64,000 bases of DNA from Lysobacterales bacterium (GCA_022844165.1 JALHMH010000001.1:32001-96000), one strand, 5' to 3'. Numbered from the stretch's first letter, positions 25,935 to 56,071 are shown. Notes: generated by a model from the sequence alone, not told the origin. Numbers and translations: made by a program.

Positions 25935-26669
25935 CTACTCAGAAAGCCGTGGCCGGAAACTGTATGGCGGCCACGGACCTGAGCAGCTCAAAAATATCCC
26001 CTCGGCGGCCAGCGTCTCGCGAGCGGCATCGACATCTTGCTGAAACGCATGCTCACGCGCCCTATCGATCAGCAGAGCGATATTCAACAGCGGCTGAGCC
26101 TGCTGACCTGGAACAACCGCCTGGCGACGAACTTCGGTGCGCGCACGCGCCTGCGAGAAAAGCGGCGCCAGCAACTCGTCGATTCTCGTGCGGGCGGCTT
26201 CCTGGCGAATCCGGCGCCGTTCCGGCGCGGACTGCTTAGCTTTCAACCACGCAAGACCGCTCATTCCCGATGCCGGGACTTCAGTGCCTTCTTCGCCGTC
26301 GGCGAGTATCGCCTTGATGCCCCACTCGGCAGCGCCGGCGACGTTTGCGAAGTACCGCTCCAACTCATCATGGTGTGCGCTGGCCGCGCATAGCAACTCG
26401 TCGGCCGCAGGCACGATGAGTCCAAATTGAAGCGGATACGCAGCCACCGTCTGACATATCTCCGTCACTGCGCTGTGCTGTCTGGCCAGTGCCCACGACA
26501 GCCATTTCGCGTCCTGCTGCGTGATATCAGAGTAGCGCTCCACGTCTGTCGCTTCGAGCGCTAAACAAAGAAGCGTCCAAGGTCCTTCAGTTGCCACCAC
26601 TTCCAGGCCCTCAACAGCGGGAAGCTCCGGTGCAGAACCAGTGGCGACCAGCGCAATTGGGTTCAGCAT
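25935..26669 (-). CDS. gvpL: GvpL/GvpF family gas vesicle protein (detached copy)
   Basis: H..V...PLQFG, EWGIK, LLNIALLID, C-terminal SGPWPPYSF; AGGA RBS before ATG at 26669. Confidence 0.85.
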   Translation of the reverse strand: MLNPIALVATGSAPELPAVEGLEVVATEGPWTLLCLALEATDVERYSDITQQDAKWLSWALARQHSAVTEICQTVAAYPLQFGLIVPAADELLCAASAHHDELERYFANVAGAAEWGIKAILADGEEGTEVPASGMSGLAWLKAKQSAPERRRIRQEAARTRIDELLAPLFSQARARTEVRRQAVVPGQQAQPLLNIALLIDRAREHAFQQDVDAARETLAAEGIFLSCSGPWPPYSFRPRLSE

Positions 26670-26784
26670 TGTGAATCCTATGACAAGACCAGACCGCGAC
26701 AATACGGCAGCTCAGCGCTGACATCACAACTACTACAACTAAGTGGGTAGTTCCCGGCGACAGATCGCAGGGAATGATAAGGAC

Positions 26785-28578
26785 ATGAAAAGGGCCTTCC
26801 CCACGTTCCAGGTCGATCAATCGCGACGCCGCAAGCGCATGCGGACGGTTCTGCGGGGCGGCCGCTTTAGTTGGAACACTGGACTCTTCCGCGGAGCGAC
26901 GGACTTGAACGAATTGCCAGCCGCGCTACTTGAATCGGACGGCGAGCTGCTTGCGGCAATTCTTGAAGCGCTGCCGACGATGCTGATGGTCTTCGATCGG
27001 ACTGGCAAGCTGCTGCGCGTCAATCGTTCCTTTCAGTCCATTGCGGGCTACTCGCCAGACGCCATCGAACATCTGCACTTTTCCAGTCTGTTCGCCGATT
27101 CCAGTGCGCAGTCGCAATGGCAAACGGCCCTGGCCTGCAAGAACTTGAATGCCATCGAGTGCAATGAATACTTGACCAACCGCGCCGGGCGGCGGGTGCC
27201 GCTGGAACTGGCATTGGTGCGAGTGGGCGAGGCGGCCGATTTACGTATCGTGGTCGGCGCCATTGACTTGCGCAGTCAGCGCACGACCGAACGCCATCTG
27301 ATCCGACAGGCCTACTTTGATGCGTTGACGCGATTGCCCAATCGTACGGGTTTCAAACACCAGCTGGCGTTGCGCATTGCCGGCAGTTTTCAGCGCGACG
27401 AGGACTCTCTCGCTGTTGCCGTAGTCGATGTTGCACGCTTTCGCGTCATCAACGATGCGATCGGTCATGACGGTGGCGATGCATTGTTGCAGAGCCTCGC
27501 CAGCCGACTCCAGTCCAACCTCCAGGATGTGGTGATCGGGCATTTGAGTGCCGGCGAATTTGCTGTGATGTTGACCGATGTGCGCAACGAGCGCGACGCG
27601 CTGCGTGTCGGCCAGCGAATCCTTGGATTGTTTCGGGAGGCATTCCTGGTGCGCGGCCAACGCATCGTGCTCAACGCACGCGTTGGTGTGGCGCTGGCCG
27701 ACGCCAGGTCGGACCCCGCGACCGTGATGCGCGATGCCGATTCTGCACTTTTCGAGGCCAAGGAATCCGCTCAGGGTGTGCGTGTCTTCGACCGGTCGAT
27801 GCGCCTCGCCAGCGAAGCACGCCTGCGTCTGGATATCGAACTCCGCGCAGCCGTCGCGCGCGATGAATTTCGCCTGGTGCTGCAGCCGATCGTCCGTGTG
27901 CAGGACGGCACATTGGTCGGGCACGAAGCCCTGGTTCGCTGGGCACATCCAACTGCCGGCGAGCTGCTTCCCGCGCAATTCATCGCGCATGCTGAGCGCT
28001 CCGGGGTTATCTCCGCCATCGACGCCTGGTCGCTGCGAGCTACTCTGGAGTGGCTGGAAGACACGCGAACGGGTCTGTCCTGTAACGTCAATACGTCGGC
28101 GCTGTCGTTGTTGGATCAGGTGTGGTTAAACGATGCCGTACGCCTTCTCGAAGAACACAGCGAAGCGGCAAAACGACTACGCATCGAGATCACCGAAACC
28201 GCGCTGCTTGGCGATGCCCAGATCACTGCTGCGGCGCTGGAGCGATTGATCGGTGCTGGCGCGCAAATCGTCCTCGACGATTTTGGGACTGGCTACTCCT
28301 CGCTCGTGCATCTGCAGAGTTTTCCGATCTCCGGCATCAAGGTCGATCGTTCGTTTCTTGCGCGCCTGGATTCCGATCGGCGGGACCAGACGATTGTTGC
28401 CGCGCTCATCGGTCTGGCAAGCGAACTGGGTCTGACGGTCACCGCCGAAGGCGTCGAGACTGAAACGCAACGTGCTTGTCTGATCGAGCACGGGTGCGAG
28501 TTTGCGCAGGGATATTTATTCGGTCGACCCGCGCCCGCGGCCGCGACCTTGCAGCACTCTCTTGGAGCAATCAAATGA
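26785..28578 (+). CDS. PAS-GGDEF(degenerate)-EAL protein, probable c-di-GMP phosphodiesterase
   Basis: PAS; DALTRLPNR; GGDEF replaced by SAGEF; intact EAL, EITET, DDFGTGYSS, KVDRSF, EGVET, QGY. Confidence 0.88.
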   Translation: MKRAFPTFQVDQSRRRKRMRTVLRGGRFSWNTGLFRGATDLNELPAALLESDGELLAAILEALPTMLMVFDRTGKLLRVNRSFQSIAGYSPDAIEHLHFSSLFADSSAQSQWQTALACKNLNAIECNEYLTNRAGRRVPLELALVRVGEAADLRIVVGAIDLRSQRTTERHLIRQAYFDALTRLPNRTGFKHQLALRIAGSFQRDEDSLAVAVVDVARFRVINDAIGHDGGDALLQSLASRLQSNLQDVVIGHLSAGEFAVMLTDVRNERDALRVGQRILGLFREAFLVRGQRIVLNARVGVALADARSDPATVMRDADSALFEAKESAQGVRVFDRSMRLASEARLRLDIELRAAVARDEFRLVLQPIVRVQDGTLVGHEALVRWAHPTAGELLPAQFIAHAERSGVISAIDAWSLRATLEWLEDTRTGLSCNVNTSALSLLDQVWLNDAVRLLEEHSEAAKRLRIEITETALLGDAQITAAALERLIGAGAQIVLDDFGTGYSSLVHLQSFPISGIKVDRSFLARLDSDRRDQTIVAALIGLASELGLTVTAEGVETETQRACLIEHGCEFAQGYLFGRPAPAAATLQHSLGAIK

Positions 28579-30731
28579 TGGATGGCAGCGACGCCTTGAA
28601 TGATGCGGTCGATTCGTTCGCGCGTGCGAAAGGGCTATTCAGTCCTGCGGCGATGGGCTACTACCAGGGCGCTTTGCAGGCGCGCCAACACCTGGCCAGT
28701 GCGGCAATCATTTTCGACCGGGCTCAGGCGATCGCACGCGATGCGTGCGAGCTGGCCCGACCGTCGTTCGAACGCTCGGGTCTCATGGTGCATGCCGATG
28801 CTCTGGCGAGCGCCGAGCGCGACCTGTGCATGTTTGCTCAGGTGTGCGCGCGCGCATTGACGGGTGCGGATCGCGATCTGGAAAAAGGATACCTGAGGCA
28901 AGTGGCGACAGCCTCCAGCCTCGGTATGGACTTTCACGACTCCAGCCCATTGTTGCTGGGATTCGCCTGGTGCGCGGCTGCCAATCACTTGCAAGGACAA
29001 GCGCTGTGGTGCTTTCGCGCGGCCTGCGAACGGGCACAGTCCGCGTTGCGTAACGCTGCCAGCGGAGCGGCACTCAGCGCAGCGGCAGGCGACATTGGCG
29101 CTGGCGCTTACCCGATGTTGTCATCGGCTCACCCGGAACTGGATCAGATTTACGGCGCTGTGACAGCGGCAAAGTGTCCGCGCGATATGAGCATGATGCT
29201 CGGCACAGCAGCGCACGAATGGCTGGCCGAAGGGCGGCAAACGCCGTTAACCCAATGGATCAGCTGGCTCGTCGCCGCGATCGGGCCGCACGTTGCGCGC
29301 TACAGCGGCGATGTCTGGGGCAGCGTTTTTGCCAGCCTCGCGGCCGCCTCGTTGAGCCGGGTGCCGACGCAACAGTTGCCTGGGTGCGCCGCACCCCTTT
29401 TGGAGATTTCGCTTCACGGACATGCGCTGCGGCGCGCGGTGCATGGTTTGTTGCGTGCCGAAGATGCCGGGCATTTGAGCGCGCGGCGCAATAGCGAATC
29501 GGTAGCGGCTGCCCCCCACCATCAGCAGCGGGTCGCGCGGTTGTTTGCTGCACTCGCTTGCGCCAGCGTTGTGGGCGACCATGCCTATGCCGAGAAAGCG
29601 GTAGCAGACTTGCTCAACGAAGTCCGAACCTCGTCCAGTGAGCCATGTCTGCTCGGCCTTGCGTCGGCAGGCAGCGAAGCGATGGGTGTTGCCTACACGC
29701 CATTCGTCGCGCAGGCAATCGATGCTGGAGTCGATTCGGCGCGTGCGTTCGCCTTGCTACAGGGCGAGTGGCGCCACTTGCCAGACATCGCCAAAGGCGT
29801 CGTAGACCAGCTGAGTTTACCAACGGGTATGTTGCCGTGGCTCACCGGCGTTCTGGCGCTGCTGCTGGAACTGGCGACCAGCCGTTCTGCGCCGCGAGCC
29901 GAGCTTGCTCTGGGCGACCGGCTTCTGGCGGATTTCCTGGGGCTTTCGGGCAGCACGCCGGCCATTGAGGCGCAAGCCTTGCGTGCGCTGGCCGCTCGAG
30001 TACGCGAACATCCGGCCTCTGCCGTGGCGCGCCTAAGCACCTTGTTAAGCTCGCTGGGCGCAATGACCGACCGTTGGGAAGTGGTCTTTGTGATGCGCGC
30101 GGCAAGCAATCGCGGCGATGCCAGCGAATCCTGGACCGGGGCACTGTCCGCGCGCCTGGCCGTCGTATTGATCAATAACGCAAGCGAAAATTCCATTGCA
30201 GACACCGTGCATTGGTTGGCGACGGCATGGGTACCCCACGTGCGCTTCGCCCTGCCCGAACAATCGCCAGAGGTGCTGGCCGCGCCGGCGATTGCAGAGC
30301 TTCAGGCGCAACTGCCCATAGAGCAGCACGGTCGAATTGCGCAGCTCGCCGAGGGCATCGCCGATGCGGCGACCGCCCATGCGATGCTGGCAAACGCCGA
30401 TGCCTGGTGTGCTCAAGCGGTTGCGGAGATGCGAACGCGACCGAGCTTTGCGTCAGTGCGTGGGATTGAGACCAGGTGCATCCGCGATCTGACCATTTTG
30501 CTCAAGTCGATCGCTTGTTTCCTGGGCTCAGGACTTGGCGATGTTCCTATACGAGTTCGCGCATTTGCAGCGGCGCACTTGTTGCCGTTCCTACAAGAAG
30601 AAACGCGCAACTTCGGCACTGAACTGGTTGCAGTGTTGCAGGCGCAGATGGCACAACTGAGCGGCACGTCGCGCAACCGGGTCGCAGCGCTCCTGGCCTC
30701 AGTTTATCAACACGACGGTGCCCCGCAATGA
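28575..30731 (+). CDS. Large protein with several phycobiliprotein-like (BBAG-type globin) repeats
   Basis: Phycobiliprotein-like N-terminus; helix-E-like motifs SAERDL, KCPRDM, RCIRDL; ATGA-coupled at both ends. Confidence 0.6.
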   Translation: MMDGSDALNDAVDSFARAKGLFSPAAMGYYQGALQARQHLASAAIIFDRAQAIARDACELARPSFERSGLMVHADALASAERDLCMFAQVCARALTGADRDLEKGYLRQVATASSLGMDFHDSSPLLLGFAWCAAANHLQGQALWCFRAACERAQSALRNAASGAALSAAAGDIGAGAYPMLSSAHPELDQIYGAVTAAKCPRDMSMMLGTAAHEWLAEGRQTPLTQWISWLVAAIGPHVARYSGDVWGSVFASLAAASLSRVPTQQLPGCAAPLLEISLHGHALRRAVHGLLRAEDAGHLSARRNSESVAAAPHHQQRVARLFAALACASVVGDHAYAEKAVADLLNEVRTSSSEPCLLGLASAGSEAMGVAYTPFVAQAIDAGVDSARAFALLQGEWRHLPDIAKGVVDQLSLPTGMLPWLTGVLALLLELATSRSAPRAELALGDRLLADFLGLSGSTPAIEAQALRALAARVREHPASAVARLSTLLSSLGAMTDRWEVVFVMRAASNRGDASESWTGALSARLAVVLINNASENSIADTVHWLATAWVPHVRFALPEQSPEVLAAPAIAELQAQLPIEQHGRIAQLAEGIADAATAHAMLANADAWCAQAVAEMRTRPSFASVRGIETRCIRDLTILLKSIACFLGSGLGDVPIRVRAFAAAHLLPFLQEETRNFGTELVAVLQAQMAQLSGTSRNRVAALLASVYQHDGAPQ

Positions 30732-33700
30732 GCGTGCCGAGTTCACCTCTTCGCGGTTGTTTCGCCTCTAGTAGCGCGGCTGGACTCAGCGCACGCCTGC
30801 GCGCCGTGCATTCTGTGGCCATCGCCCGGGAACTGAGCGTGCTCAGCGCCTCGTTGCGCAATGGCAACAGCGAGGAGTTGGGCGATCTGACCGAACTTGC
30901 CGACGGCGATGCGTTGGCCGAAGTTCTGGATGAGCTTGCCAGGCGCCTGACCACGCCTGAGCAGATCGCTGCGCAACCGATGCCGGCCTGGGTCAGCATC
31001 GCGCAGCGTTCGCGGGACTATGTCGATATCGACGATTTGTCGCCGCTGGTGGAGCGCATTGTGGCGCGTATCGCGCGCCGCGTCGCACCCGGAACCCGTA
31101 GCTTCGTTGAACTCTATGTTTGGGAAGCGCAGGCAGCATTCGAGGTGTTTCGACAACGCTTTCAGATCGCGCAGGATATCGATGCCATCGTTGCCGAAGT
31201 GTTTGCCGGGCTGGCCCATGCAATGCGCCTCCTCGATGAAGACGCGAGCCAGGTGGATCTGGAGGAGTTGCAAAGCAGCTTCGCGCAAGTCTTGCGCGAG
31301 TGGACGAAGCTGTTGAGCGACATGGGCGCAGTGGTCGATCTGGAACTGATCAGACTCTTCGTCAACGAACTTGCGGTTCGCTACCGCTTGAGCCCGCGGA
31401 TATGGTCGTTGCTGATTTTGCGCCTCGATCGCGCGTTTTCGGTGCGCGCCGATAACCGCCTCGAACACGTCTTCGGCGATGCGATCGAGGGCTTGCTCGG
31501 TGCTACGCAACGGTTCGATTTCTTGCGCGATCTGCGCAGCGACGGGTATGCCTATTTGCCACCGGACGCCGAGTTGTGGGGCGATCTGGTCAGCGTGATG
31601 ATTGTCGTTTCGCTACGTCCGGGCTCGCGCCTGGAAGCGCGTTCGGCGCGGGCTTTGAATTTGGCGGCCGTCAGCGATCTGGTCGGCGGGCGTTGGGACG
31701 ATTTCGAGCAAGCCGTTCGCCTCGGCTCGGCCGGCCTGCGCAATCGCTGGGAGCGCAATTTCCTGGACTTGTACACGGCGGGGTCAGCGCGCCTGCTGAC
31801 GGTCGCCAAAGTTGCCAGTGAGCTGGCAGCGCAGGACTTGAGTGCAGTCCACGATCCGTCTGTCGAAACGTTGCTGCTGAAGGCGCGCGCAGCGATCGTA
31901 CTGGGCGCTGATGTGCCTGCTCAGCGCAGTCTGTTTCGTGTTGGCCTTTCGCAGGTGATCGAATTGCCCAATCGCTCGCAGTTGCGCGTACTCGCGCAGC
32001 AGGCGTCCGGCGGCGATGCCGAACTGAATTCCGCACTCAAGGATCTATTTGAGCTGGCGCAGGTGTCGGGACATCAAGCCGAAGACCTGGCGCCAGCTGC
32101 GGCCGGTCTGCTCGCACAGATGGTTGCGCCGAACGACCCTGCCGTGGCGTGTCTATTGCAATTATTCGCCGGCATGCATCGCATCTTCGACGAGCACGAA
32201 GCGCGCGCCGAACTGCGGGCACATATGGCGCGGACGCTGCTCGAGGGTTGGCAGACTCGCGCCGGATCGGAGTTGACCGCCCTGCATGCGGCGCTCAGTT
32301 TCCTGCGCGCCAGCGCGCACTGGAAAAACAGTCAGCTCGCAAAGCTGATGATCGCCTTCGAGCCATCGCTGCGTTCGGTTTCGGCCGCGGTCAAAATTTC
32401 CAGAGTGGCCGCTGAACTTGCCGATCAAGCCAGCGCTGCGGTCCTGCGCGACTATCCGCATTACGCCGAACGAATTGGCGAAAGCGGTTGCGCCGCGACG
32501 CGCCGTGACAACTACTTTACCGTCTTGCGGCTGGCACAAGTTCTGGGTGGGGCCAACGCATCGCCCAAAGAAACGATGGTGTGGTGGTGGTTGAGCACGA
32601 TCGGCGTCTATCTGCGCAATCGCGATCAGTCTGTGATGCAAGGCAACCTGCGCGCCATCGTGCACGCGCTGACGCCGCATTTAAGAGTCGAAGAACTGCT
32701 GATCTGCAGCGATATCCTGACGGCCGTGTACCGGAAGGGATTGGCAATCGACATCCCGCGCGATCTGGGCGTCGGATCGGTGTTGAACTTTCGACAAATG
32801 GCCGAGCGCGGCCCGTTATGGCGTAGCGCGTTCACCATGCGCCGTGCCGCATCGCCCCACCACGGCCTGCTCGGCGACTACTTGAAAACTTACGCCGCGG
32901 CCGACACCGAAGGCGCGGCTGTGATCGATGTTTGGCGCAACTTCGCGGCACAGTGGCAGGCGCTGGGCGATCCGGCGATGGCCTGGTCGGAACTGTCGGC
33001 ACAGGTGTCCCAGGCGATCCGCGCCGTGGGCGCGAATCGGTTGCAGTCGGCTTGGGTTCGCGAGCTGCGAGTATTTGGCGCGATGCCCGAATGCGCCATG
33101 CACCATTTGTTGTTGGCGCAAGGCCTGGAGCGAGTGCAACTGGTGGCCTTTGGGTTGAACCTGGCGCCGCGCATCGCCGAGTTGTCTGCATTGATGGGAC
33201 GCTCAGCGCATGTTCTGCCGGAAACGCCAGAAGGTCGCGGCGAGTTGTTCGCGCACAAGGGCGAGCGTGACCTGGCGCTACTGCTGAATGTGTTGGCGGA
33301 GGCCTGCTGCAGTGGCGATCAAGGTCTCGCAACACTGAATGCTGGACGCTATCTGCTCGAGTGTATCCTGCCCTACGTTCCGTTCTCCGAACAGAGCTGG
33401 GCTTCGGTTTGGGCGGTTGCACTCGCGGAACTCCTGCCGACGTCGTGCGCACCGGTGTCGGCCGCGGCGCAGCGCTGTTTTGCGCTGCTCAATGCCCTCA
33501 CCCGCCAGGCGGATATGCTACGTGCGGTAGGGCAGGAGATTTTTGTCCCCACCTTGCCGGTGTTTTCCGACGATCCGGCACAGGAGGCAGAGTGGCGTGC
33601 GCTGGCCTCCGGGTTAATGGTGGCCGCTGCGGCTGCAGACGCTGGTCTGCCGGGGGAGGCGCTGGCGCAGAGTCTCGCGCTGGCGACTCCATTGTTTGCA

Positions 33701-35046: not shown

Positions 35047-35090
35047 GCGCAGTTTTCGCAGGCAAATCCGATGACTTTGAGTAAAGACTA

Positions 35091-47394: not shown

Positions 47395-47425
47395 TTTTTA
47401 CATCCGAAGGATGAGGTTACGAAGA

Positions 47426-48127: not shown

Positions 48128-48848
48128 GCACGTGCTGCGCTGCGTGCGCAAATGGGCAGCCCAACGATCCTTGGCGTGCCGGGCGTGGCGCAGGCATGGC
48201 GACTTCGCCAAGCCATGCGCTCAGCGAGCCGAAGACGAAGCGCGCAACGTCGATCATGCGATTCTCATCGAGGTCGGTTGTGTTTTCGATCTGTTGAATG
48301 GTGCGTCTCCATACCTGCCCGTGCGCGCCGTCATAACAATCGAAGTATGTCACCGCGTTAGCGACAGTCTGACCCAGATGTTCGTTGAGCGCGCGGCGAA
48401 TCACTTGTCCGCCCAAGGTGGCGCCTTCGAACACATACACCACGCCGGCGCGCGTCGACTCATCGTGGCAATCCAGTTCGTCGAATACTGGCGAACTGGT
48501 ACTCCGGGGGAAGTCGCGCATACCGACGGCGGCGAGATCGGATTCAAGCTTCGGTGTGCGCTGGCAGGCGAGGTTGAAGACGGCATGTTGTGCCTGCGCC
48601 ATACGCAACTCCAGGGGTCCCACATAACCCAGCAGCCGCAGCAGCAACAGCCGATACTCATTCAGGCTGTAATCTGGCTCTAGCAGCCGGCGCATGCAGG
48701 GCACGGCCTCGATCATGTCGTGGGCCTGGCGTGTGTTTAGTCGCAAGCGCTGAATGCGCGATGTGGAGCGATCGCCATGCAGATCGCCCGATTCGCCGGA
48801 TAGCGACGCGGCTGGCAAAGTCGTTAGCAACACAGCTTTGGATCCCAT
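48120..48848 (-). CDS. bphO: Biliverdin-producing heme oxygenase
   Basis: LR..T..AH..IE (proximal His), YVFEGATLGGQVI, YF..Y.....W. Confidence 0.88.
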   Translation of the reverse strand: MGSKAVLLTTLPAASLSGESGDLHGDRSTSRIQRLRLNTRQAHDMIEAVPCMRRLLEPDYSLNEYRLLLLRLLGYVGPLELRMAQAQHAVFNLACQRTPKLESDLAAVGMRDFPRSTSSPVFDELDCHDESTRAGVVYVFEGATLGGQVIRRALNEHLGQTVANAVTYFDCYDGAHGQVWRRTIQQIENTTDLDENRMIDVARFVFGSLSAWLGEVAMPAPRPARQGSLGCPFAHAAQHVHV

Positions 48849-48910
48849 CGGCCTTGTTGGTCGACATAGTGGTGAAATGTGTGCTCACAGTCCCTACCAC
48901 TTTGGTTTTA

Positions 48911-48939
48911 TTGCACGCAAGCCCCCTGCTGACCATGCT
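48911..48939 (+). promoter_or_regulatory. Candidate sigma70-like promoter for the gvpA operon
   Basis: TTGCAC - 17 nt - CATGCT preceded by a T-rich tract. Confidence 0.3.
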
Positions 48940-49057
48940 TAGGCGGCGTCCAGGGTTTCGAGTCGGACTTGGGTGCCGCTAGTGCAAGATGCGCCGTCTG
49001 GCGGGCAAGAGCGCTCTTACAACTCGGTTTGTTGCAACTAAATTTCGGAGATTCGCC

Positions 49058-49276
49058 ATGGCACAAGTTCAGAAATCGACCGACTCTTCAAGTCTGGCCG
49101 AAGTTGTTGATCGCATCCTCGACAAAGGTATCGTGATCGATGCGTTCGTCAAGGTTTCGTTGGTGGGTATTGAATTGCTCGCGATCGAAGCGCGCGTGGT
49201 GATCGCCTCGGTCGAAACGTACTTGAAGTACGCCGAAGCGATCGGCCTGACCGCCAGCGCCGCGCAACCGGCGTAA
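49058..49276 (+). CDS. gvpA: Gas vesicle structural protein GvpA
   Basis: [55 protein letters not shown]; GGAG RBS. Confidence 0.97.
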
Positions 49277-49286
49277 CAGGGTACCC

Positions 49287-49327
49287 GTTCGCCGGAGGTC
49301 CGCCTCCGGTGAACTTCTTTTCCTTTC
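49287..49327 (+). terminator. Stem-loop / partial terminator downstream of gvpA
   Basis: GTTCGCCGGAGG-tccg-CCTCCGGTGAAC followed by TTCTTTTCCTTT. Confidence 0.7.
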
Positions 49328-49348
49328 AACTGCGCAGGCGGCAAGACA

Positions 49349-49873
49349 ATGGACCAGCAGTTTCCTGGAGATATCGCGCCGCTGATGCGCGCATGCGCCG
49401 ATCTGGCGCGACGACGTGCCGACGATCTGGCGCGTGTCCGGACATCGGTAAGCCAGCTCAAGAACAATCTCGCGCGCACGCTGGTGCAGTTCGACCATGC
49501 GCGCAATGAGAGCGCGGCGCGAATTCAGGCGCTCCGCGCGCAGACGACGCAGTCGCTTGCCGATAACCGTCGTGAACGCAGCCAACAGCTTGCCGACTTC
49601 CGCGCGCGACTGGCAAAAGACCATGCTCGTACCACGGAGCAAACGCGCCAGGCCCTGGGCAGTTTTCGCGACGCGCTGCAAGCGGCGGTGAGTGACATCA
49701 AGAAACAAACTCAGGTTGCAAAGCGTGCGCGGTTCAAGACCGGTTCGTTCCGTCATGCGGCGGCACCGGCCAAGCCACCGAGCCGTCCGACATCTGTCGC
49801 AGACACGGCACCCATCGCGCGCAAGCGCAACCGGTCCGGCGCGAACGACTCGCGTAGTTTCCTCGACCTATGA
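49349..49873 (+). CDS. gvpC: Putative GvpC-like gas vesicle strengthening protein
   Basis: Lies between gvpA and gvpN; helical repeats of the L..F...R type. Confidence 0.55.
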   Translation: MDQQFPGDIAPLMRACADLARRRADDLARVRTSVSQLKNNLARTLVQFDHARNESAARIQALRAQTTQSLADNRRERSQQLADFRARLAKDHARTTEQTRQALGSFRDALQAAVSDIKKQTQVAKRARFKTGSFRHAAAPAKPPSRPTSVADTAPIARKRNRSGANDSRSFLDL

Positions 49874-51075
49874 GCACCTTTGCAGGCGTGGACGAGTTGG
49901 ATCCCGCGGGGCAAGTCTCCGTCGAACCCAGCGCTGGTTTTGTATTGACGCCGGCGGTTTCGCTGATTGCGGATCGCGCGCTGGCGTATCTGCGTGCCGG
50001 GTATCCCGTCCACCTCTGCGGCCCAACCGGCACCGGCAAGACCACGCTGGCATTTCATGTTGCCAGCAAGTTAGAGCGCCCAATCGTTCTGCTGCACGGC
50101 GATCATCAATTGACCAGCGCTGATTTGGTCGGTTCGCCCTCTGGCACGCGCACTTCGCGCGTGGTCGACAACTACATCCGGTCGGTTGTTCGCACCGAGG
50201 AGGAGCGGCGCGAGTTGTGGGTCGACAATCGGCTCACGACGGCATGCCGCTACGGGCACACGCTCATCTACGACGAATTTAATCGCACGACCGCGGAAGC
50301 CAATAACCCGCTGCTTAGCGTCTTTTCCGAAGGCATTCTGAATTTGCCGAAGGCCAGCGACGGGCGCGAAAGCTATCTGCGCGTGCATCCAAAGTTCGCA
50401 GCAATATTGACGTCGAATCCCGAAGAGTACGCTGGCGTGTTTCGCACCCCAGACGCCTTGCTGGATCGCGTCATTACCATCGTGCTCGACTATTACGACG
50501 GCGAAACCGAGACCAGTATCGTGGCAGCGCGTACTGGCGTCGATTTCGACTTCGCGCATCAGATTGTCGCGATGGTGCGTGGCTTGCGCAACGCCGGTAG
50601 CAGTGCACATCGCCCAACCATTCGCGCCGCCATCACCATCGCCAAAGTACTCAAACAGTCAGGGCTCCCCATTTCCAGCGAACCGGTCGTACGCTCGATT
50701 TTTGCCGATGTGCTCGGCGCCGATCCTTTCAAGATCTTGTTGAGCTCGACGGCACCCGGTTCTACCGGAGCGGCGGCCGATTCCCCGGCGTCGGACGAGT
50801 TCAAACCAGCCGATCAAGATTTTGATGCGGCGCCGTCAGTCGTGGTCGCCCCTGATGAGCCTGGTACAAGCGCGATGCGGGCGGAAGAAGCCCCCGACAG
50901 TCCGATACTGGAAGTGTCTGGCGCAACGATGCCAGCGGAGCTGGCGCGGGCCATGCCAGCCGAACCGCTGGATGAGCGCGAACAGAAGCGCGCGGCCCGG
51001 CAGAGAAAACGTGGCGGCCAGCCGGCAGCTGCCTGGTTGAATGCGTTCGACGAACGCAGCCCACAAACTTCCTGA
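49870..51075 (+). CDS. gvpN: Gas vesicle AAA ATPase GvpN
   Basis: YL.AGYPVHL.GPTGTGKT, WVDNRLT.AC, YDEFNR, TSNPEEYAGV. Confidence 0.95.
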   Translation: MSTFAGVDELDPAGQVSVEPSAGFVLTPAVSLIADRALAYLRAGYPVHLCGPTGTGKTTLAFHVASKLERPIVLLHGDHQLTSADLVGSPSGTRTSRVVDNYIRSVVRTEEERRELWVDNRLTTACRYGHTLIYDEFNRTTAEANNPLLSVFSEGILNLPKASDGRESYLRVHPKFAAILTSNPEEYAGVFRTPDALLDRVITIVLDYYDGETETSIVAARTGVDFDFAHQIVAMVRGLRNAGSSAHRPTIRAAITIAKVLKQSGLPISSEPVVRSIFADVLGADPFKILLSSTAPGSTGAAADSPASDEFKPADQDFDAAPSVVVAPDEPGTSAMRAEEAPDSPILEVSGATMPAELARAMPAEPLDEREQKRAARQRKRGGQPAAAWLNAFDERSPQTS

Positions 51076-51086
51076 GCGCCGAAGCG

Positions 51087-51383
51087 ATGGCCAACTTTAA
51101 ACGCGTCAAGTCCACCATACCGAGCCGCACCTGGAGCGGGCGCAAGGTCCAGGTCAGCAACCACGCGACGTACTTGAAGTTGAGCTTCTTGTCGCAAGAG
51201 CGACGGCGTCGTCAGGTAGAGTTGAACAATCTTTCGGCACGCATCGAGTTATTGAAGAAGCGCATGGTGACGATCGATCAGGAGATCGAAAAGCTAAGCG
51301 CTCAAATCGTCTCGCCGGCGCAGAGCCATGTCACAGAAGCCGATCCCGAACCGCAGCAGCGCGGTATATCGATCAAGTATTGA
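51087..51383 (+). CDS. gvpV: GvpV-like coiled-coil gas vesicle protein
   Basis: YLKL..L..ER.R...EL..L..R......R...I..E pattern directly after gvpN. Confidence 0.55.
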   Translation: MANFKRVKSTIPSRTWSGRKVQVSNHATYLKLSFLSQERRRRQVELNNLSARIELLKKRMVTIDQEIEKLSAQIVSPAQSHVTEADPEPQQRGISIKY

Positions 51384-51389
51384 GCAATC

Positions 51390-51662
51390 ATGAAAATGAG
51401 CAAGTCCCCCGTTCTGCAAATCCACGAGCAAATCAAGGGCAACCTGATCGAAATGCTCGGTGCTCGTGAATTCCGCGTCGTCGGCATGCAAAAGCTGGAT
51501 GCCGGTTGGTCGGCTGATGTCGAGGTGTACGTGCGCAATCCGCAACTGAGCATCTCGAACGACGCCGGTAGCAAGGATATGCTGACGCGCTGCCGCTACC
51601 GGGTAGACTTCGATGCGGATTTGCAGATGAGCGGCTTCACCGAGACTGAATTCGACTCATGA
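51390..51662 (+). CDS. gvpO: GvpO-like gas vesicle protein
   Basis: VVG.....GW...VEV......D.L...Y.V..D......G pattern. Confidence 0.65.
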   Translation: MKMSKSPVLQIHEQIKGNLIEMLGAREFRVVGMQKLDAGWSADVEVYVRNPQLSISNDAGSKDMLTRCRYRVDFDADLQMSGFTETEFDS

Positions 51663-52390
51663 GCCTGCTCCTGTATGGCATTACCAAGGCCGAGGTTTCG
51701 CTCCCTGGCGAACTCGCTGGCGTATCCGATGCGCCGGTGAGACCGATAGTCGTCGGTCCCGTGTCGATGTGGGCTTCGGATTACGATGGTGTAGAAGTGT
51801 CTCCGCGGCGCAAAAATCTGGCCGGTTTCCAAGGGGTTGTGAACCATATTTCGGCGCAGCACGATATGTTGCCGGCTGCATTCGGCATGCTCGCCGCCGA
51901 TGAGGACGAAGTGACCGCACTGCTGAGCCGGCATCGTGCCGTGCTGCTTTCGGAGCTCGATCGCGTCGCCGGTGCTTGCGAGTACGCCTTCCGCTTACGC
52001 TTTGTCGGCGAAAATTTGTTCGCCGATTTTGTCGAGCGCTTCGCTGAAATCCGAGCGTTGCGCGATCGCGTGTTCGAGGGCGGCAAGGCACCAACGCAAA
52101 ATGAGCGCATCCAGCTCGGCCAGAGTTTCGAGAAGCGCCTGCAGAGCGAGCGTGCGCGCATTCTGGAGTTGATGGTCAAGTGCTTCGAACCCAGCATCCG
52201 AGAATGGATGGAATTGAACTTCGAAAACGAACAAGTGCTTTGCAACGTCGCGTTGCTGGTCGATCGTGGTCAGGTCGCCGCGCTCGATGCGGCAGTCGAA
52301 GGTTTCGCTGCACGGTTCGACGACTTCCATCTGGTGGAGCTGTTGGGCCCCTGGCCGCCTTACAGTTTCGCCGAACTGCGTTTGGATTAG
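51659..52390 (+). CDS. gvpF: GvpF/GvpL family gas vesicle protein
   Basis: LYGI, LPAAFG, NVALLVDR, GPWPPYSF. Confidence 0.88.
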   Translation: MSLLLYGITKAEVSLPGELAGVSDAPVRPIVVGPVSMWASDYDGVEVSPRRKNLAGFQGVVNHISAQHDMLPAAFGMLAADEDEVTALLSRHRAVLLSELDRVAGACEYAFRLRFVGENLFADFVERFAEIRALRDRVFEGGKAPTQNERIQLGQSFEKRLQSERARILELMVKCFEPSIREWMELNFENEQVLCNVALLVDRGQVAALDAAVEGFAARFDDFHLVELLGPWPPYSFAELRLD

Positions 52391-52394
52391 TGAG

Positions 52395-52604
52395 ATGTTT
52401 GGCACTGGCTTGTTGATGGGCGTGATGCGCGAGATCGACAAGGCCGTGCAGGGTGAACTCGATAGCGAGCAAGAGGGCATCTTACGGAAACTGCGCCAGT
52501 TGCACCGAGCGATCGAACTCAAAGAAATCGATGAAGATACGTTCGAGGAGCGGGAGACGCAGCTCCTGGAGCGGCTGGAAACCATCAAACGGATGCGGCG
52601 CTGA
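52395..52604 (+). CDS. gvpG: Gas vesicle protein GvpG
   Basis: I..KL..L....E..EIDEDTFEERE..LLERL. Confidence 0.8.
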   Translation: MFGTGLLMGVMREIDKAVQGELDSEQEGILRKLRQLHRAIELKEIDEDTFEERETQLLERLETIKRMRR

Positions 52605-52625
52605 CCCAATGAGTCGTTCGAACTG

Positions 52626-52865
52626 ATGCAGCGCCATGACGCCAACGAGTTGTACCTTTCGGACCTGCTTGATCGTCTGCTGGACACCGGTGTCGTGCTG
52701 CGTGGGCACATCACGATCAGCGTTGCCGACATTGAGCTGGTGTACCTCGACATCAGTGTGGTGCTGGCGTCCGTCGAGCGCGCGTTGAAGTGGCAACACG
52801 CCGAATCGTTGGCAGATCGGCAGATACCTGGGGTGCGCAATGTCGATCGAACCGTCCTCCATTGA
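52626..52865 (+). CDS. GvpA-family accessory protein (GvpJ/M/S-like)
   Basis: LSDLLDRLLDTGVVL.G.I.ISVADIELV. Confidence 0.85.
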   Translation: MQRHDANELYLSDLLDRLLDTGVVLRGHITISVADIELVYLDISVVLASVERALKWQHAESLADRQIPGVRNVDRTVLH

Positions 52866-53157
52866 ACAGGGCCTGGCGGCCCTGCTGAGCCGCCAGAGCC
52901 GCGTCGACCTGGCCGACCCCGCCGCTGGCGTGAATGGCCTGGCGCAGCTGGTGCTTACGTTGATCAAGGTGATCCACGAGTTGCTCGAAAAACAAGCGCT
53001 GCGGCGCTTCGAGGCCGGTTCTTTGACCGATGAGGAAGCCGAAAAACTGGGCAGCGTGCTGATGGCGCAGGCCCGCGAACTGAAAGCCTTGTGCGTACAC
53101 TTCGGCCTCGACGAGCGCGACCTCACGCTCGATCTTGGCCCGCTGGGAAAACTCTAA
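52840..53157 (+). CDS. gvpK: Gas vesicle protein GvpK
   Basis: GLAQLVLTL...ELLEKQALRR...GSL...E.EKLG, DL.LDLGPLGKL. Confidence 0.92.
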   Translation: MSIEPSSIEQGLAALLSRQSRVDLADPAAGVNGLAQLVLTLIKVIHELLEKQALRRFEAGSLTDEEAEKLGSVLMAQARELKALCVHFGLDERDLTLDLGPLGKL

Positions 53158-53165
53158 GGATGCAT

Positions 53166-53501
53166 ATGTCACGCGACGAGCCACGCAACATGGTGCACTC
53201 GACCCACAGCACCAATCTGGCCGATCTGCTGGAACGATTGCTCGACAAAGGCGTGGTGATCAGCGGCGATATTCGCATCAAGTTGGTGGATATCGAATTG
53301 TTGACGATCCAGATTCGTCTGGTGATCTGCTCGGTCGATCGTGCGGTGGAGATGGGCATGGACTGGTGGCGGCACAACCAGTATTTCCAGAAGGGTACCG
53401 ATGCCGATCCGGCGCAACTGGAACGCATCGCCGATCGCCTGGATTCGCTTGAACGCCGCCTCTCGGCGCTACCTGTTGAGGTCCCTGATCGCCATGAGTG
53501 A
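53166..53501 (+). CDS. gvpJ: Gas vesicle protein GvpJ
   Basis: NLADLLERLLDKGVVISGDI...IELLTI.IRLVICSVD.A.EMG.DWW. Confidence 0.88.
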   Translation: MSRDEPRNMVHSTHSTNLADLLERLLDKGVVISGDIRIKLVDIELLTIQIRLVICSVDRAVEMGMDWWRHNQYFQKGTDADPAQLERIADRLDSLERRLSALPVEVPDRHE

Positions 53502-53997
53502 CAAGAATCTTTTTGCCGATTTGCTTCGTGGTTTGGGTGGTGCGCTTGAAAGTCTGGGTGAGGCGATCAACAAACAAACCGACGGCAAGCCGCGTGTTGA
53601 AGTGAAGCGCAGCGTCAAAATGCGCTCGGCGGATGGCAGTAGCGGTAATCCGCTGGACGATCTAAAAGATCTTGCCAATCGGCTCAAAGAAAACACCAGC
53701 CCGCCGATACCAAGATCGCGAACCTTGAAACTTGAGGTGCACGAAGAAGATAACCAGGTATTCGTGGTCATCCAGCAGGCCGGTTTGCAAGCGGACAATT
53801 TGCAGATCGCGATCGACGGAGACATGCTTGAGTTGCGGGCAGAACAACCCGAAGGCCGTTACCATGGCGAGGCGCTGTTGCCTTGCGCCGTCAAGAAAAG
53901 TTCGCAAACGCTGACCGATCGTGCCGGACTGCTCGAGCTGCGCTGGCAGAAACTACGTCTCACGCGAACTCGCGCGGCACCGAAGCGCTCACCCTGA
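53494..53997 (+). CDS. Hsp20/alpha-crystallin-like protein (GvpH-like)
   Basis: EVHEE...V.V.....G.....L.I...GD.L.L.A....RY..E..LP, GLLELR. Confidence 0.7.
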   Translation: MSDKNLFADLLRGLGGALESLGEAINKQTDGKPRVEVKRSVKMRSADGSSGNPLDDLKDLANRLKENTSPPIPRSRTLKLEVHEEDNQVFVVIQQAGLQADNLQIAIDGDMLELRAEQPEGRYHGEALLPCAVKKSSQTLTDRAGLLELRWQKLRLTRTRAAPKRSP

Positions 53998-53998
53998 T

Positions 53999-56071
53999 AT
54001 GGCCAATCCGACAACGACCCTGATCATCCGCGAGGCGCGCCCGCAGGATGTCGGAAGGCAAATCGCGCGCATCGATCCGGCCGATATTCAACGCCTTGGA
54101 CTTCAAGTCGGCGGATTCGCGACGCTGCAACAAGGCGCCCACAGCACGGTGCTGCGCGTCATGCCTGCCTTCCCCGGCGAGCGTGGCAAGCGACAGGTGC
54201 AGATCGACCCGGCAACCCGGCAATTGTTGCAGGCAAGTCTGGGTCAAGAAGCTCTGTTGACGACGGTGGAATGCCCGCCGGCCAAAGAAGTCTGGCTGCG
54301 CGTGGATGATGGCTTGCCATTGTCGAGCAGCGCACAGGACTTTCTCGCCGAGTGGGTAGACGGTCTTGCGCTCAATGTCGGTGCGCTGCTGAAGCCTGAG
54401 GTTGGCGGACAGATTCGGCGGATCGTGGTTGAGCGCCTGCGCCCGGACGGGCCGTGCGTGGCGCTGCCGGAGACGCAACTGAAAATTGAGGTTCCCCAGG
54501 CGCGTGCAGCGCGTAAAGAGGTCACGCTGTTCGACGACATTGGGGGCCTGGAACGGGAAATCGAGAGCCTGCGGCAAATCGTTGAGCTGCCACTGAAGTC
54601 GCCTCAGGTGTTTGCCAAACTCGGCATTGCAGCTCCCCGTGGCGTGCTGTTGTACGGGCCGCCAGGCACCGGGAAAACGCTGATCGCGCGCGCCGTTGCC
54701 AGTGAGAGCCGAGCGAATTTTATCGCCATCAGCGCGCCGGAAATCGTCCATAAATTTTATGGCGAAAGCGAGGCCAAACTGCGCGAGTTGTTCGATCGAG
54801 CCCGCAAGCAGGCACCGGCAATCGTGTTCATCGACGAGATCGACGCGATCGCCGCGCGTCGCGATCAGGTGCAGGGCGAAGTCGAGAAACGCATCGTTGC
54901 GCAGTTGTTGACGCTGCTCGATGGCCTCGATGGTCGCGGCCAGATCATTGTGATCGGTGCCACCAATTTGCCGCAGGTTCTCGACCCGGCTTTGCGCCGG
55001 CCGGGGCGTTTTGATCGCGAATTGCTGATCAGTTTGCCCAGCGAATCGGCGCGGCGCTCGATTCTGGGCGTGCATACCCGCGGTATGCCGCTGGCCGCGG
55101 ACGTCAACCTTGATGAGCTGAGCCGTGAAACGCGTGGTTACAGCGGCGCAGATCTCAAGGCGCTGTGCCAGGAAGCCGGCATGCGTGTCGCAACGGCCGC
55201 AGCACGAGAGCCGGCAACCGAATTGGTCCTGCGCCAGGCCAACTTCGAAGCGGCGCTGCTGGATGTCGTACCGACATCCATGCGACAAGTCGATATCGAA
55301 GTACCAAACACGCCGCTCGAAGCGATTGGTGGCTTGCAGGAGGCCAAGCGGCTGCTCTGCGAGAACATTCTTTGGCCGATCGAAACGCCAGAGTTGTATC
55401 GCCATTTCAAGGTCAATCCGGCACGTGGTCTTGTGCTTCACGGCCCGCCGGGCACCGGCAAGACCCTGCTGGCACGCGCGATTGCCAGCGCCGCCAAGGC
55501 GAATTTCCTGGCAGTCTCTGGCCCTTCGTTGTTGTCGCGTTATGTCGGCGACTCGGAGCGCGCCGTGCGCGAATTGTTCGCGCGTGCCCGCCAGGCCACG
55601 CCGTCGATCATTTTTTTCGATGAATTCGATTCACTTGCACCAGCACGAGGCCGCAACGGCAGCAGCGAAGTCAGCGAACGAGTCGTTGCGCAACTTCTCA
55701 CGGAAATCGACGGGCTGACGCCGCGAGCACCGGTATGGCTGCTTGCCGCCACCAATCGCGTGGATTTGATCGACCCGGCGCTGCTGCGCCCGGGCCGCTT
55801 CGACGCCCTGGTGCCGGTCACCCTGCCCAGCCGCGACGACTGTCTCGCGATCTTGCGTGTAGCGCTGCGCGATCGGCCGCTGCAAGCCAACCTTGATCTT
55901 GAGTCACTTGCACCGTTTTGTGTCGGCCTTAGCGGGGCAGAAATCGTCGCTCGCGTCGACGACGCTGCTCTGCGCGCCATTCGCCGGACGCGCGAATCGC
56001 CAGGTGTGGAGGCATGTCTGGAGGAGCAGGATTTGAGCGCGACTTTCGGGCGCACTCCCAAAGCCGACTGA
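53999..56071 (+). CDS. CDC48/p97-family double AAA+ ATPase
   Basis: N-domain DVGR.IARID; two GPPGTGKT Walker A motifs, FIDEID / FFDEFD, two RPGRFD. Confidence 0.92.
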   Translation: MANPTTTLIIREARPQDVGRQIARIDPADIQRLGLQVGGFATLQQGAHSTVLRVMPAFPGERGKRQVQIDPATRQLLQASLGQEALLTTVECPPAKEVWLRVDDGLPLSSSAQDFLAEWVDGLALNVGALLKPEVGGQIRRIVVERLRPDGPCVALPETQLKIEVPQARAARKEVTLFDDIGGLEREIESLRQIVELPLKSPQVFAKLGIAAPRGVLLYGPPGTGKTLIARAVASESRANFIAISAPEIVHKFYGESEAKLRELFDRARKQAPAIVFIDEIDAIAARRDQVQGEVEKRIVAQLLTLLDGLDGRGQIIVIGATNLPQVLDPALRRPGRFDRELLISLPSESARRSILGVHTRGMPLAADVNLDELSRETRGYSGADLKALCQEAGMRVATAAAREPATELVLRQANFEAALLDVVPTSMRQVDIEVPNTPLEAIGGLQEAKRLLCENILWPIETPELYRHFKVNPARGLVLHGPPGTGKTLLARAIASAAKANFLAVSGPSLLSRYVGDSERAVRELFARARQATPSIIFFDEFDSLAPARGRNGSSEVSERVVAQLLTEIDGLTPRAPVWLLAATNRVDLIDPALLRPGRFDALVPVTLPSRDDCLAILRVALRDRPLQANLDLESLAPFCVGLSGAEIVARVDDAALRAIRRTRESPGVEACLEEQDLSATFGRTPKAD

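Follow-up and report, generated by a model that had tools for sequence, protein, structure and literature searches.

A gas vesicle gene set wrapped round a bilin reductase and phycobiliprotein-like gene cluster in a few Xanthomonadales lineages, with a possible role in buoyancy control

Introduction

Can a bilin cluster control flotation in a bacterium that does not photosynthesise? The question is raised by a block of genes at positions 25935-56071 of a 64,000-nt stretch of DNA from a Lysobacterales bacterium (GCA_022844165.1 JALHMH010000001.1:32001-96000; the whole stretch is called the window here, and the genome G000). In this block, a complete gas vesicle (gvp) gene set is wrapped round a 13-gene bilin operon and a second operon with genes for a heme oxygenase, a LuxR-type regulator and a hybrid histidine kinase. 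Among the bilin genes are a pre-PcyA-like ferredoxin-dependent bilin reductase (FDBR), a phycobiliprotein-like globin of the BBAG type and two V4R proteins. An earlier note on this DNA had proposed flotation as the output of such clusters.

Phycocyanobilin synthesis and phycobiliproteins are proposed to have evolved from pre-PcyA/BBAG/V4R clusters, to which the main texts of PMC10151467 and PMC13446030 assign no function in heterotrophs. A cluster tied to an easily scored phenotype (floating, collapse of turbidity under pressure, vesicles in transmission electron microscopy) would be a handle on the roles of the bilin, the globin, the V4R proteins and the kinase. We find that the gvp and bilin halves are one co-inherited, conserved but lineage-restricted unit. 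The reading that we favour, and to which we give an even chance, is that of a composite locus in which the bilin/kinase/two-component chain sets gas vesicle expression, with buoyancy tuned to light and/or O2/redox state.

Gas vesicle genes enclose the bilin and regulator operons

Profile scans of the long open reading frames (ORFs) of the window with Pfam and NCBIfam recovered nearly every gene named in the earlier note where that note had placed it (Table 1). The gvp genes do bracket the block, with gvpL on the 25935 side and the run from gvpA to a CDC48-like gene at 49058-56071. At the left edge, the gvpL/F-family gene on the minus strand diverges from the 13-gene operon (26743-44163, plus strand), in which seven junctions are overlaps of 4 to 8 nt or gaps of at most 13 nt by ORF coordinates. 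The genes for the heme oxygenase, the REC-LuxR regulator and the hybrid kinase form a packed minus-strand operon, which runs from 48848 down to 44209 and converges on the 13-gene operon. The gvp operon, on the plus strand and ending at 56071, diverges from the heme oxygenase gene across 209 bp. Each gvp unit therefore shares a short divergent spacer with a bilin-related operon, as had been claimed, the spacer between gvpL and the EAL gene measuring about 40-116 bp according to which start codons are taken. The gvp genes are interleaved with the bilin and regulator genes and not merely juxtaposed.

The other parts that had been listed for the block are largely present as well. Heme oxygenase (Pfam: PF01126), bilin reductase (Pfam: PF05996), ferredoxin (Pfam: PF00111), FAD reductase (Pyr_redox_2), Ser/Thr kinase (Pfam: PF00069), EAL protein and phytochrome-derived two-component pair were all found by their Pfam domains, and the phosphatase scores just below its cut-off and keeps its active-site motif. 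Out of the two V4R proteins, A is firm and B is below threshold in Pfam, but is recovered by tblastn homology. The count of three phycobiliprotein-like genes has to be corrected: one gene is firm, a second candidate is a weak domain within the 1282-aa protein, and a third was not found.

The description of the host as a heterotroph is reasonable, since a profile search of the genome, rated 99.97% complete, found neither a reaction-centre gene (Photo_RC) nor the RuBisCO large subunit (RuBisCO_large). A rhodopsin search of the G000 genome was empty, but its control gave no match either.

Co-occurrence, adjacency and shared descent within the order

The strongest evidence for a unit comes from relatives. 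Out of 39 related genomes (G000 included), an FDBR gene was found in three, each of a different genus (G000, G011 and G018), and three-hit gvpA-family sets were found in exactly those three. We then used 399 genomes evenly sampled from the order, with thresholds of E <=1e-6 for gvpA and E <1e-60 for a strong FDBR. Four of them have gvpA and the same four have a strong FDBR, the fourth (G149) coming from a different family. About 0.04 co-occurrences would be expected under independence, a figure that is not a formal probability since the carriers are kin. In two further genomes of the order, distant FDBRs (E 5e-23 and 1e-9) are present without gvpA.

By local tblastn of 34 window proteins against the contigs of the relatives, the whole module was found in each carrier, with bilin and gvp genes sharing a contig and arranged differently in all four. 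The order in G000 (gvpL / EAL to FAD reductase, then kinase-LuxR-heme oxygenase / gvpA to CDC48) is a circular permutation of that in G018 (heme oxygenase / gvpA to CDC48, then gvpL / EAL to FDBR-FAD reductase, kinases, then LuxR-heme oxygenase / second EAL gene). In G011 the heme oxygenase, LuxR regulator, hybrid kinase and gvpA-to-CDC48 genes are codirectional and are followed by gvpL / EAL to FAD reductase. In G149 an operon with LuxR, EAL, Fer2, V4R and BBAG genes, in this order, diverges directly from gvpA and runs off the contig; this is compatible with a continuation on another contig, which has the kinase at its start and also the FDBR, FAD reductase and heme oxygenase genes. Common to all four carriers is that gvpA is adjoined by one gene of the trio of heme oxygenase, LuxR regulator and hybrid kinase. 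Adjacency has outlasted at least three rearrangements even though the FDBRs of the carriers are only 43-47% identical, which argues for selection on linkage.

At either end of its module G018 has one heme oxygenase gene and one PAS-GGDEF-EAL gene, which makes two of each (heme oxygenase at L009:50-796 and L006:7366-7998; PAS-GGDEF-EAL at L005:3460-5274 and from L006:8157 to the contig end). The arrangement suggests a partial duplication, through which the permuted order in G000 could have come about.

Maximum likelihood trees were built from a gvp concatenate (GvpN, GvpF, CDC48, GvpK) and from a bilin concatenate (V4R-A, ferredoxin, FDBR, kinase, 214-aa protein). Both have the topology ((G000,G018),G011,(G149,G053)) with near-equal branch lengths; the first split is well supported (98/99 and 94/99) and the second weakly (61/46 and 60/54). 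The two halves are thus concordant in distribution and phylogeny, as the earlier note would have it, within this order.

Such a pattern could also arise if two accessory clusters without any functional coupling had been fused by chance on a segment that is mobile or prone to recombination, and if this segment had since been passed on or lost whole. The patchy distribution (3/25 genomes in the family and 1/15 in family f9) is in line with this, as is a same-genus relative, G001, in which neither half is present: its homology to G000 breaks off at 25861 and starts again at 56143, so that the absent segment, 25862-56142, frames exactly the block of the earlier note. An empty site between the ycfJ-like gene and speD had been looked for. 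The segment is indeed absent there, but the site is not a clean one: the left flank lies on contig C3 and the right flank on C17, and the DNA beside them matches other G000 contigs, so that the flanks are rearranged. The composition of the block is not distinct from that of its flanks, which also fits a chance fusion. We nevertheless consider this explanation quite unlikely. The conserved adjacency described above points to selection on linkage, the window has no tRNA gene, the segment is not flanked by long direct repeats (the longest repeat family in the region is 34 nt), and the gvp genes are interleaved with the bilin and regulator genes.

Observations that weigh against bilin control of flotation

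A number of observations weigh against control of the gas vesicles by the bilin genes. The first concern distribution. A pattern scan with one genome per species, which is limited by its pattern, is not exhaustive and missed G149, gave 23 FDBR loci (L011-L033). In the 10-kb flanks of the 21 loci outside the family no gvp gene was found (0/21), and 20 of these 21 genomes have no gvpA anywhere. The remaining one, G053, is a fifth co-occurring genome, but has its bilin and gvp genes on separate small contigs and is too fragmented for linkage to be judged. Among 400 genomes sampled from the class, gvpA occurs in four including G000, and the other three gvp-positive gammaproteobacteria have neither FDBR nor V4R-A (3/3). 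Moreover, a single weak Gas_vesicle match (27.5 bits) stands without an FDBR in the relative G013. Finally, the counts within the order overstate independence, because the four linked genomes are related to one another, all of them coming from two families of the same order.

The gene-neighbourhood survey that had been proposed thus gave a divided answer, with gvp linkage in the carriers of the order and none at the 21 loci outside the family, and the idea that flotation is the general output of pre-PcyA/BBAG clusters has to be given up. Because bilin clusters occur elsewhere without gvp genes, and gvp-positive gammaproteobacteria occur without bilin genes, flotation is at most a lineage-specific output. 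The gvp-bilin fusion is specific to a few Xanthomonadales lineages, and it is plausible that flotation is in these either the output of the bilin module or a co-regulated partner.

The second set of observations concerns the proposed sensors, which look impaired, and the promoter region. The sensor module of the hybrid kinase is phytochrome-derived: it has a PAS_2 domain (61.4 bits), a borderline GAF domain (22.2 bits, cut-off 22.4) and the sole PHY domain of the G000 genome (34.1 bits), and it matches bacteriophytochrome (BphP) structures in the PDB with E 1e-36. In comparison with the BphP structure 8u4x, however, the DIP motif reads IYS, His260 is a gap and His290 is Gln. Since the IQPHG motif is where the ORF begins, with a stop codon before it, there is no room for an N-terminal chromophore Cys. 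With Cys, DIP and both His residues missing, the module is unlikely to act as a photoreceptor, and the orthologous kinases in G018 and G011 (576 and 556 aa) are entirely without it. The BBAG globin, too, lacks a residue: its CXRD motif reads APRD, with Arg and Asp kept and Ala in place of Cys in G000, G018 and G011. Furthermore, alignment with MAFFT and a k-mer search of the 260 nt upstream of gvpA gave no k-mer of 9 nt or more in at least three of five genomes, and no motif was found that is common to both divergent spacers of G000.

Control or co-regulation

Since the bilin cluster is present without gvp genes in 20 of the 21 other genomes, it has a function that is independent of flotation. 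This opens the way to an alternative in which both halves belong to a regulon for life at the water surface. The vesicles would lift the cell to the lit and oxic surface, where the bilin proteins would serve in protection against light and reactive oxygen species, in the handling of heme or iron, or in light sensing for other outputs; they would be kept together through co-expression and would not control flotation. Adjacency, co-occurrence and co-phylogeny fit co-regulation almost as well as they fit control, and a planktonic programme would be in keeping with an EAL gene as the first of the operon. On the other hand, a kinase, a phosphatase, two V4R proteins of ligand-binding type and a two-component pair resemble signalling and not a protective pigment, and the hinge genes always adjoin gvpA itself. 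We think the surface regulon unlikely, and favour control of the gvp genes by the bilin chain because the parts are signalling parts and because the hinge genes always touch gvpA.

In the favoured reading, the chain would begin with heme oxygenase, which needs O2 and would produce biliverdin. The FDBR would reduce biliverdin to a phytobilin, with electrons passing from NAD(P)H through the FAD reductase of the locus to the 2Fe-2S ferredoxin; as the host has no photosystem, an electron route of its own would be expected. The Cys-less BBAG would then bind the bilin non-covalently, as perhaps would the globin-like domain within the 1282-aa protein. The holo/apo or light state of this complex could be read by the V4R proteins together with the kinase and phosphatase, and a signal passed to the hybrid kinase and the LuxR regulator, which would act on transcription from the heme oxygenase/gvpA region, while the EAL enzyme would lower cyclic di-GMP. 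The outcome would be buoyancy tuned to light and/or O2/redox. Candidates for the signal are light, the product being a photoactive pigment, O2, on which heme oxygenase depends, and redox state, as the chain runs on reducing power. The gene content, the operon-like packing and the conserved linkage are observed; we infer from them each biochemical step, the direction from bilin to gvp and the nature of the signal.

A bolder version, which we put forward tentatively and on balance doubt, is that the ancient bilin/BBAG/V4R/kinase module, from whose stock phycobiliproteins arose, is a working depth sensor of a small group of non-phototrophic aquatic Xanthomonadales, in which a reduced bilin reads light and/or O2 and directly sets vesicle production through the hinge of heme oxygenase, LuxR regulator and hybrid kinase. 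If true, it would be the first physiological output for any pre-PcyA/BBAG cluster and the first case of bilin-controlled buoyancy in a heterotroph, and the 1282-aa protein would be a scaffold comparable to the core-membrane linker. Gas vesicle biology would gain a regulator of a new kind, and a compact sensor-to-buoyancy cassette would be of interest for engineered acoustic reporters.

Genes of the bilin operon

Table 1. Features of the block, with positions in the window, strand and the matches or signals on which each call is based.
Feature	Position	Strand	Basis and remarks
gvpL/gvpF-family gene	25935-26702	-	PF06386, E 3.2e-26; likely ATG 26669
PAS/degenerate GGDEF/EAL protein, first operon gene	26743-28578	+	EAL 213.6 bits, GGDEF 103.2 bits, PAS
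751-aa orphan, start uncertain	28476-30731	+	no Pfam family; 28-29% identical homologs at the same position in G018 and G011
1282-aa helical orphan	30728-34576	+	possible embedded phycobiliprotein-like domain, ~aa 520-680
[2Fe-2S] ferredoxin	34489-35046	+	PF00111, E 3.5e-11; likely start 34573
V4R protein A	35091-35750	+	PF02830, 62.8 bits
721-aa coiled-coil protein	35763-37928	+	C-terminus YFQMLPWQG (YFxxLPWxG motif)
BBAG-type phycobiliprotein-like globin	37925-38524	+	PF00502, E 5.8e-10
V4R protein B, divergent	38531-39229	+	V4R E 0.052; tblastn to V4R-A homologs E 1e-14 to 1e-17
Ser/Thr protein kinase	39222-41162	+	PF00069, E 4.8e-34; C-terminal domain of ~380 aa without known family
214-aa protein	41159-41803	+	ParA/MinD/BY-kinase-like predicted fold; no Walker A (no GK[ST])
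Cys-based dual-specificity-type phosphatase	41446-42300	+	PF00782, 32.9 bits (cut-off 33.5); CHLGVGR = C-X5-R; start 41446 or ~41815
pre-PcyA-like FDBR	42297-42980	+	PF05996, 61.8 bits (cut-off 31)
FAD/NAD(P)H ferredoxin-reductase-type enzyme	42991-44163	+	Pyr_redox_2, E 6.5e-44; Reductase_C, E 9e-4
Hybrid histidine kinase, PAS2-GAF-PHY-PAS-HisKA-HATPase-REC	44209-47394	-	Pfam
REC + LuxR/GerE-type response regulator	47426-48211	-	PF00072 + PF00196; likely start 48127
Heme oxygenase, divergent from gvpA	48120-48848	-	PF01126, E 4.7e-11
Heme oxygenase/gvpA divergent spacer	48849-49057		holds CTACCACTTTGGT and one copy of an exact 20-mer
gvpA, 72 aa	49058-49276	+	PF00741; ATG 49058
Terminator-like hairpin	49287-49314	+	12-bp stem, then T-rich tail, directly 3' of gvpA
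174-aa coiled-coil protein	49349-49873	+	weak coiled-coil matches; 35-37% identical homologs at the same position in G018 and G011
gvpN	49870-51075	+	TIGR02640, 319.7 bits (cut-off 266.8)
Two small ORFs, 98 and 90 aa	51087-51662	+	no family above threshold; conserved in G018, G011 and G149
gvpF	51659-52390	+	PF06386, E 6e-47
gvpG	52395-52604	+	PF05120, 37.8 bits (cut-off 30.6); missing from the list of the earlier note
gvpJ	52626-52865	+	PF00741
gvpK	52840-53157	+	PF05121
Second GvpJ/A-like gene (third Gas_vesicle-family gene)	53091-53501	+	PF00741
Hsp20-like protein, start uncertain	53341-53997	+	NF041800, E 4.4e-9, below cut-off
CDC48-like double AAA+ ATPase, last gvp-operon gene	53921-56071	+	CDC48_N + two AAA domains

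Out of the members that define a pre-PcyA cluster, the heme oxygenase, the Fe-S protein, the two V4R paralogs and the BBAG globin are all found around the FDBR, which matches PcyA structures by profile with E 4e-17. By comparison with Synechocystis PcyA, His88 is replaced by Asn and Asp105 by Glu (an invariant E85), and the column of Glu76 is not conserved. The catalytic residues His88 and Asp105 are described as missing in pre-1 enzymes in PMC10151467, and the FDBR of G000 matches this description. It is also 36% identical to the homolog of Agitococcus lubricus, a species whose FDBR the same paper calls pre-1. By residues and by similarity to the Agitococcus lubricus locus, the FDBR therefore looks pre-1-like. 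The FAD reductase gene follows the FDBR gene only in the gvp-linked lineages, among the FDBR loci that we compared. The ferredoxin has the pattern C-X5-C-X2-C...C and is 79% identical in G018 and G011; as judged from their sequences, ferredoxin and FAD reductase together could feed both FDBR and heme oxygenase from NAD(P)H.

The Cys of the CXRD motif is kept in 10 of 13 aligned BBAG homologs, and the motif is described for some BBAGs in PMC10151467. Because this Cys is missing here, bilin binding by the BBAG of G000, if any, would be non-covalent. A second phycobiliprotein-like domain is possible in the 1282-aa protein, where three weak lines agree: PF00502 matches with E 0.051, profile matches in the PDB include phycocyanin and allophycocyanin (E 0.39-1.3), and most of the best-ranked Foldseek matches are phycobiliprotein chains, with alpha chains at the top (TMt 0.5-0.6, E 0.16-1, with a model pLDDT of 57.7). 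An hhalign comparison of this protein with the BBAG alignment gave no match. Homologs of the 1282-aa protein are found in G018, G011, G149 and a Competibacterales metagenome-assembled genome (MAG). ESM Atlas searches with the 751-aa and 1282-aa orphans were uninformative (best scores 0.87 and 0.78).

The EAL protein keeps the EAL, DDFGTG and EGVE motifs, and a regular-expression search of it found no GG[DE]EF motif; the patterns are those that we take to mark these domains. With no GGDEF signature, cyclase activity is unlikely. The position of the EAL gene is conserved in G018, G011 and G149. V4R-A is 83/81/77/67% identical in G018/G011/G149/G053. The Ser/Thr kinase keeps its HCDIKPEN motif with the catalytic Asp as well as the DLG and APE motifs. 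The 214-aa protein was tried as a second globin and rejected, with an hhalign probability of 0.2% against BBAG and a ParA/MinD-like fold (AF2 pLDDT 87.3; Foldseek matches to Wzc, ParA and MinD with TM ~0.5 and E 5e-5 to 1e-3).

Many of the FDBR loci in other organisms share a core of Fer2, V4R-A, a low-complexity protein, BBAG, V4R-B, kinase, 214-aa protein, sometimes the phosphatase, and FDBR. Loci with this conserved core come from Opitutales and other Verrucomicrobiota, from a betaproteobacterial MAG and from a Competibacterales MAG, and other FDBR loci from Thiotrichales, Thiomargarita, Agitococcus, Chloracidobacterium and an actinomycete MAG. In Agitococcus lubricus the cluster is partial and lies at a contig edge (kinase C-terminus, 214-aa protein, phosphatase, FDBR), without Fe-S, V4R and BBAG genes. 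The Ser/Thr kinase is present in 14 of the 23 FDBR loci (Verrucomicrobiota and Proteobacteria) and the ParA-like 214-aa protein in 10 of the 23; neither is among the core members in the cluster description of PMC10151467, section 7. In organisms without gvp genes, Opitutales included, the slot between V4R-A and BBAG holds a low-complexity and often Pro/Ala-rich protein of 241-411 aa with several FFxxLPWxG-type motifs (L013, L014, L017, L018, L020, L021, L022, L023 and L025). The 721-aa coiled-coil protein of G000 retains a single motif of this kind, at its C-terminus.

A scan of metagenomes with the alignment of the 1282-aa protein gave two loci, both with 99% DNA identity to G018, and no new lineage. 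Plasmid records gave no sign of the locus; the only V4R-A matches in them were NZ_AP026078.1 and NZ_AP026077.1, conjugative plasmids of Acaryochloris marina with about 42% identity to V4R-A and two matching places each.

The hinge between the bilin and gvp operons

The heme oxygenase gene lies beside the gvpA operon in G018 and G011 as well, and homologs of the LuxR regulator adjoin heme oxygenase or gvpA in G018, G011 and G149. The two-component pair has all its signalling parts, with HisKA, HATPase and REC domains on the kinase, and the acidic pocket of REC and the LuxR helix-turn-helix on the regulator.

The PAS domain after the PHY region of the hybrid kinase (45700-46000, residues ~480-575) matches PAS structures of the LOV type (YF1, 4gcz, E 5.6e-19). 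At the place of GXNCRFLQ, which we take to be the flavin-Cys motif of LOV domains, the kinase reads GTVPTFLFG. This PAS domain therefore resembles a LOV fold from which the photoactive Cys is missing. A verrucomicrobial MAG (L020:14164-18816) encodes a canonical 1550-aa PAS2-GAF-PHY/multi-PAS/histidine kinase/REC protein 3.6 kb downstream of its pre-PcyA-like FDBR and preceded by a REC protein. This kinase keeps the Cys, the DIP motif and the His residues and is similar in architecture to the G000 kinase, with more PAS domains. As such a kinase recurs, the partnership between a phytochrome hybrid kinase and the bilin cluster may be of older date.

In the spacer between heme oxygenase and gvpA, CTACCACTTTGGT is common to G000 and G018 upstream of gvpA and occurs once in the window. 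As 26 of 100 shuffles give at least one match, it is a lead for a promoter motif and no more. No inverted repeat was found in the gvpL/EAL spacer. An exact 20-nt direct repeat links 35110-35129 (codons 7-13 of V4R-A) with 48940-48959 (99-118 nt upstream of the gvpA ATG). These are its only two copies in the 4.68-Mb genome, with up to two mismatches allowed, and the loci of the relatives have none with up to three. The leader of the heme oxygenase transcript, if it spans the 20-mer, would be perfectly antisense to the start region of V4R-A.

Gas vesicle genes

GvpA and GvpN, GvpF/L, GvpG, GvpJ and GvpK are all present and every frame is open. The gene set is complete, and vesicle formation is predicted from the genes. 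The N-terminus of GvpA is common to four relatives, and gvpL homologs adjoin the EAL gene in G018 and G011 (tblastn). The end of the operon is conserved too: the Hsp20-like gene is kept before CDC48 in G018, G011, G149 and G053, and the CDC48-like protein is 60/57/50/48% identical in these.

A third explanation of the linkage is physical. The bilin-globin, the 1282-aa protein and the coiled-coil proteins might decorate or scaffold the vesicles, for example as a pigmented coat, without any signalling. The operon does hold a long coiled-coil protein and helical orphans, Pfam gave no GvpC family match among the window proteins, and the 174-aa coiled-coil ORF after gvpA is, by its sequence and place, a candidate for a vesicle-surface protein of the GvpC type. 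The same coiled-coil/linker slot is filled in organisms without gas vesicles, however, and contact between these proteins and the vesicles is purely hypothetical, so we regard such a coat or scaffold as very improbable.

Flanking genes and habitat

Left of the block, at 22670-25046, a carbamoyltransferase (350.9 + 242.7 bits) and a small SxtJ-family protein (38 bits) lie near genes for an EamA transporter and a glycosyltransferase; they may form a small modification cluster that is unrelated to the finding. To the right, at 56144-57929, speD (AdoMet decarboxylase) diverges from a Crp/Clp-type cNMP-binding regulator. Here the G000-specific segment ends, the pair being 83% identical in DNA to the sister species.

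The part of the window at 42297-52290 was found in four DNA runs of one drinking-water metagenome study (word shares 0.80, 0.26, 0.25 and 0.20). The study may be the source of the sample and is therefore not independent evidence of habitat. Among the runs listed with this stretch there was no RNA run.

Comparison with known systems

The hinge of the locus resembles bphO-bphP operons, in which a heme oxygenase likewise stands with a PAS2-GAF-PHY histidine kinase and a response regulator. In contrast to these, the photosensory module of G000 lacks the residues named above, and it is absent from the orthologs in G018 and G011.

Proteobacterial gvp clusters with dedicated regulators share with G000 the order of gvpA followed by N, F, G, J, K and A-like genes, and their regulators likewise lie beside the structural genes. 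One example is Serratia sp. ATCC 39006, which reportedly has gvpA1-gvrA operons and uses O2 as a flotation cue. The regulators in G000 differ in being a LuxR-type protein, a hybrid kinase and a heme oxygenase that are tied to the bilin pathway; moreover, the G000 gvp operon ends with Hsp20-like and CDC48-like genes and the locus has no GvpC match.

The slr0144-slr0152 cluster of Synechocystis has the same core families (V4R, BBAG, Fe-S), and a Ser/Thr kinase lies beside them as in G000, the kinases being compared by description. This kinase, SpkG, phosphorylates ferredoxin 5 according to section 7 of PMC10151467 and the title of its reference 58. Unlike the G000 locus, slr0144-slr0152 has no FDBR and no heme oxygenase and is discussed in connection with photosystem assembly.

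The words 'gas vesicle', 'gvp' and 'buoyancy' are absent from the main texts of PMC10151467 and PMC13446030. No paper found in our literature search connects gas vesicles to clusters of bilin reductase, BBAG or V4R genes, and in later work on pre-PcyA enzymes and FDBRs we found no report of gas vesicle coupling, although supplementary context tables might show gvp neighbours. PMC4053972 covers gas vesicles and bilin topics, but separately.

The closest known systems are the pre-1/BBAG/V4R/Fe-S clusters of non-photosynthetic bacteria, which likewise bring together heme oxygenase, FDBR, Fe-S protein, two V4R paralogs and a globin. Pre-1 enzymes are described as active FDBRs and BBAGs as self-assembling with bilins (PMC10151467, Rockwell, Martin and Lagarias 2023), and the pre-1 product is given as 3(E)-phytochromobilin (PMC13446030; preprint bioRxiv 10.64898/2026.05.08.723791). 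As the bilin cluster has already been published (PMC10151467; PMC13446030), the comparison suggests that what is new in G000 is its coupling to gas vesicle genes. Compared with the published clusters, the G000 locus has a BBAG with APRD instead of CXRD, adds an EAL protein, two large orphans, a ferredoxin reductase and a two-component pair, and is embedded in the genes for gas vesicles.

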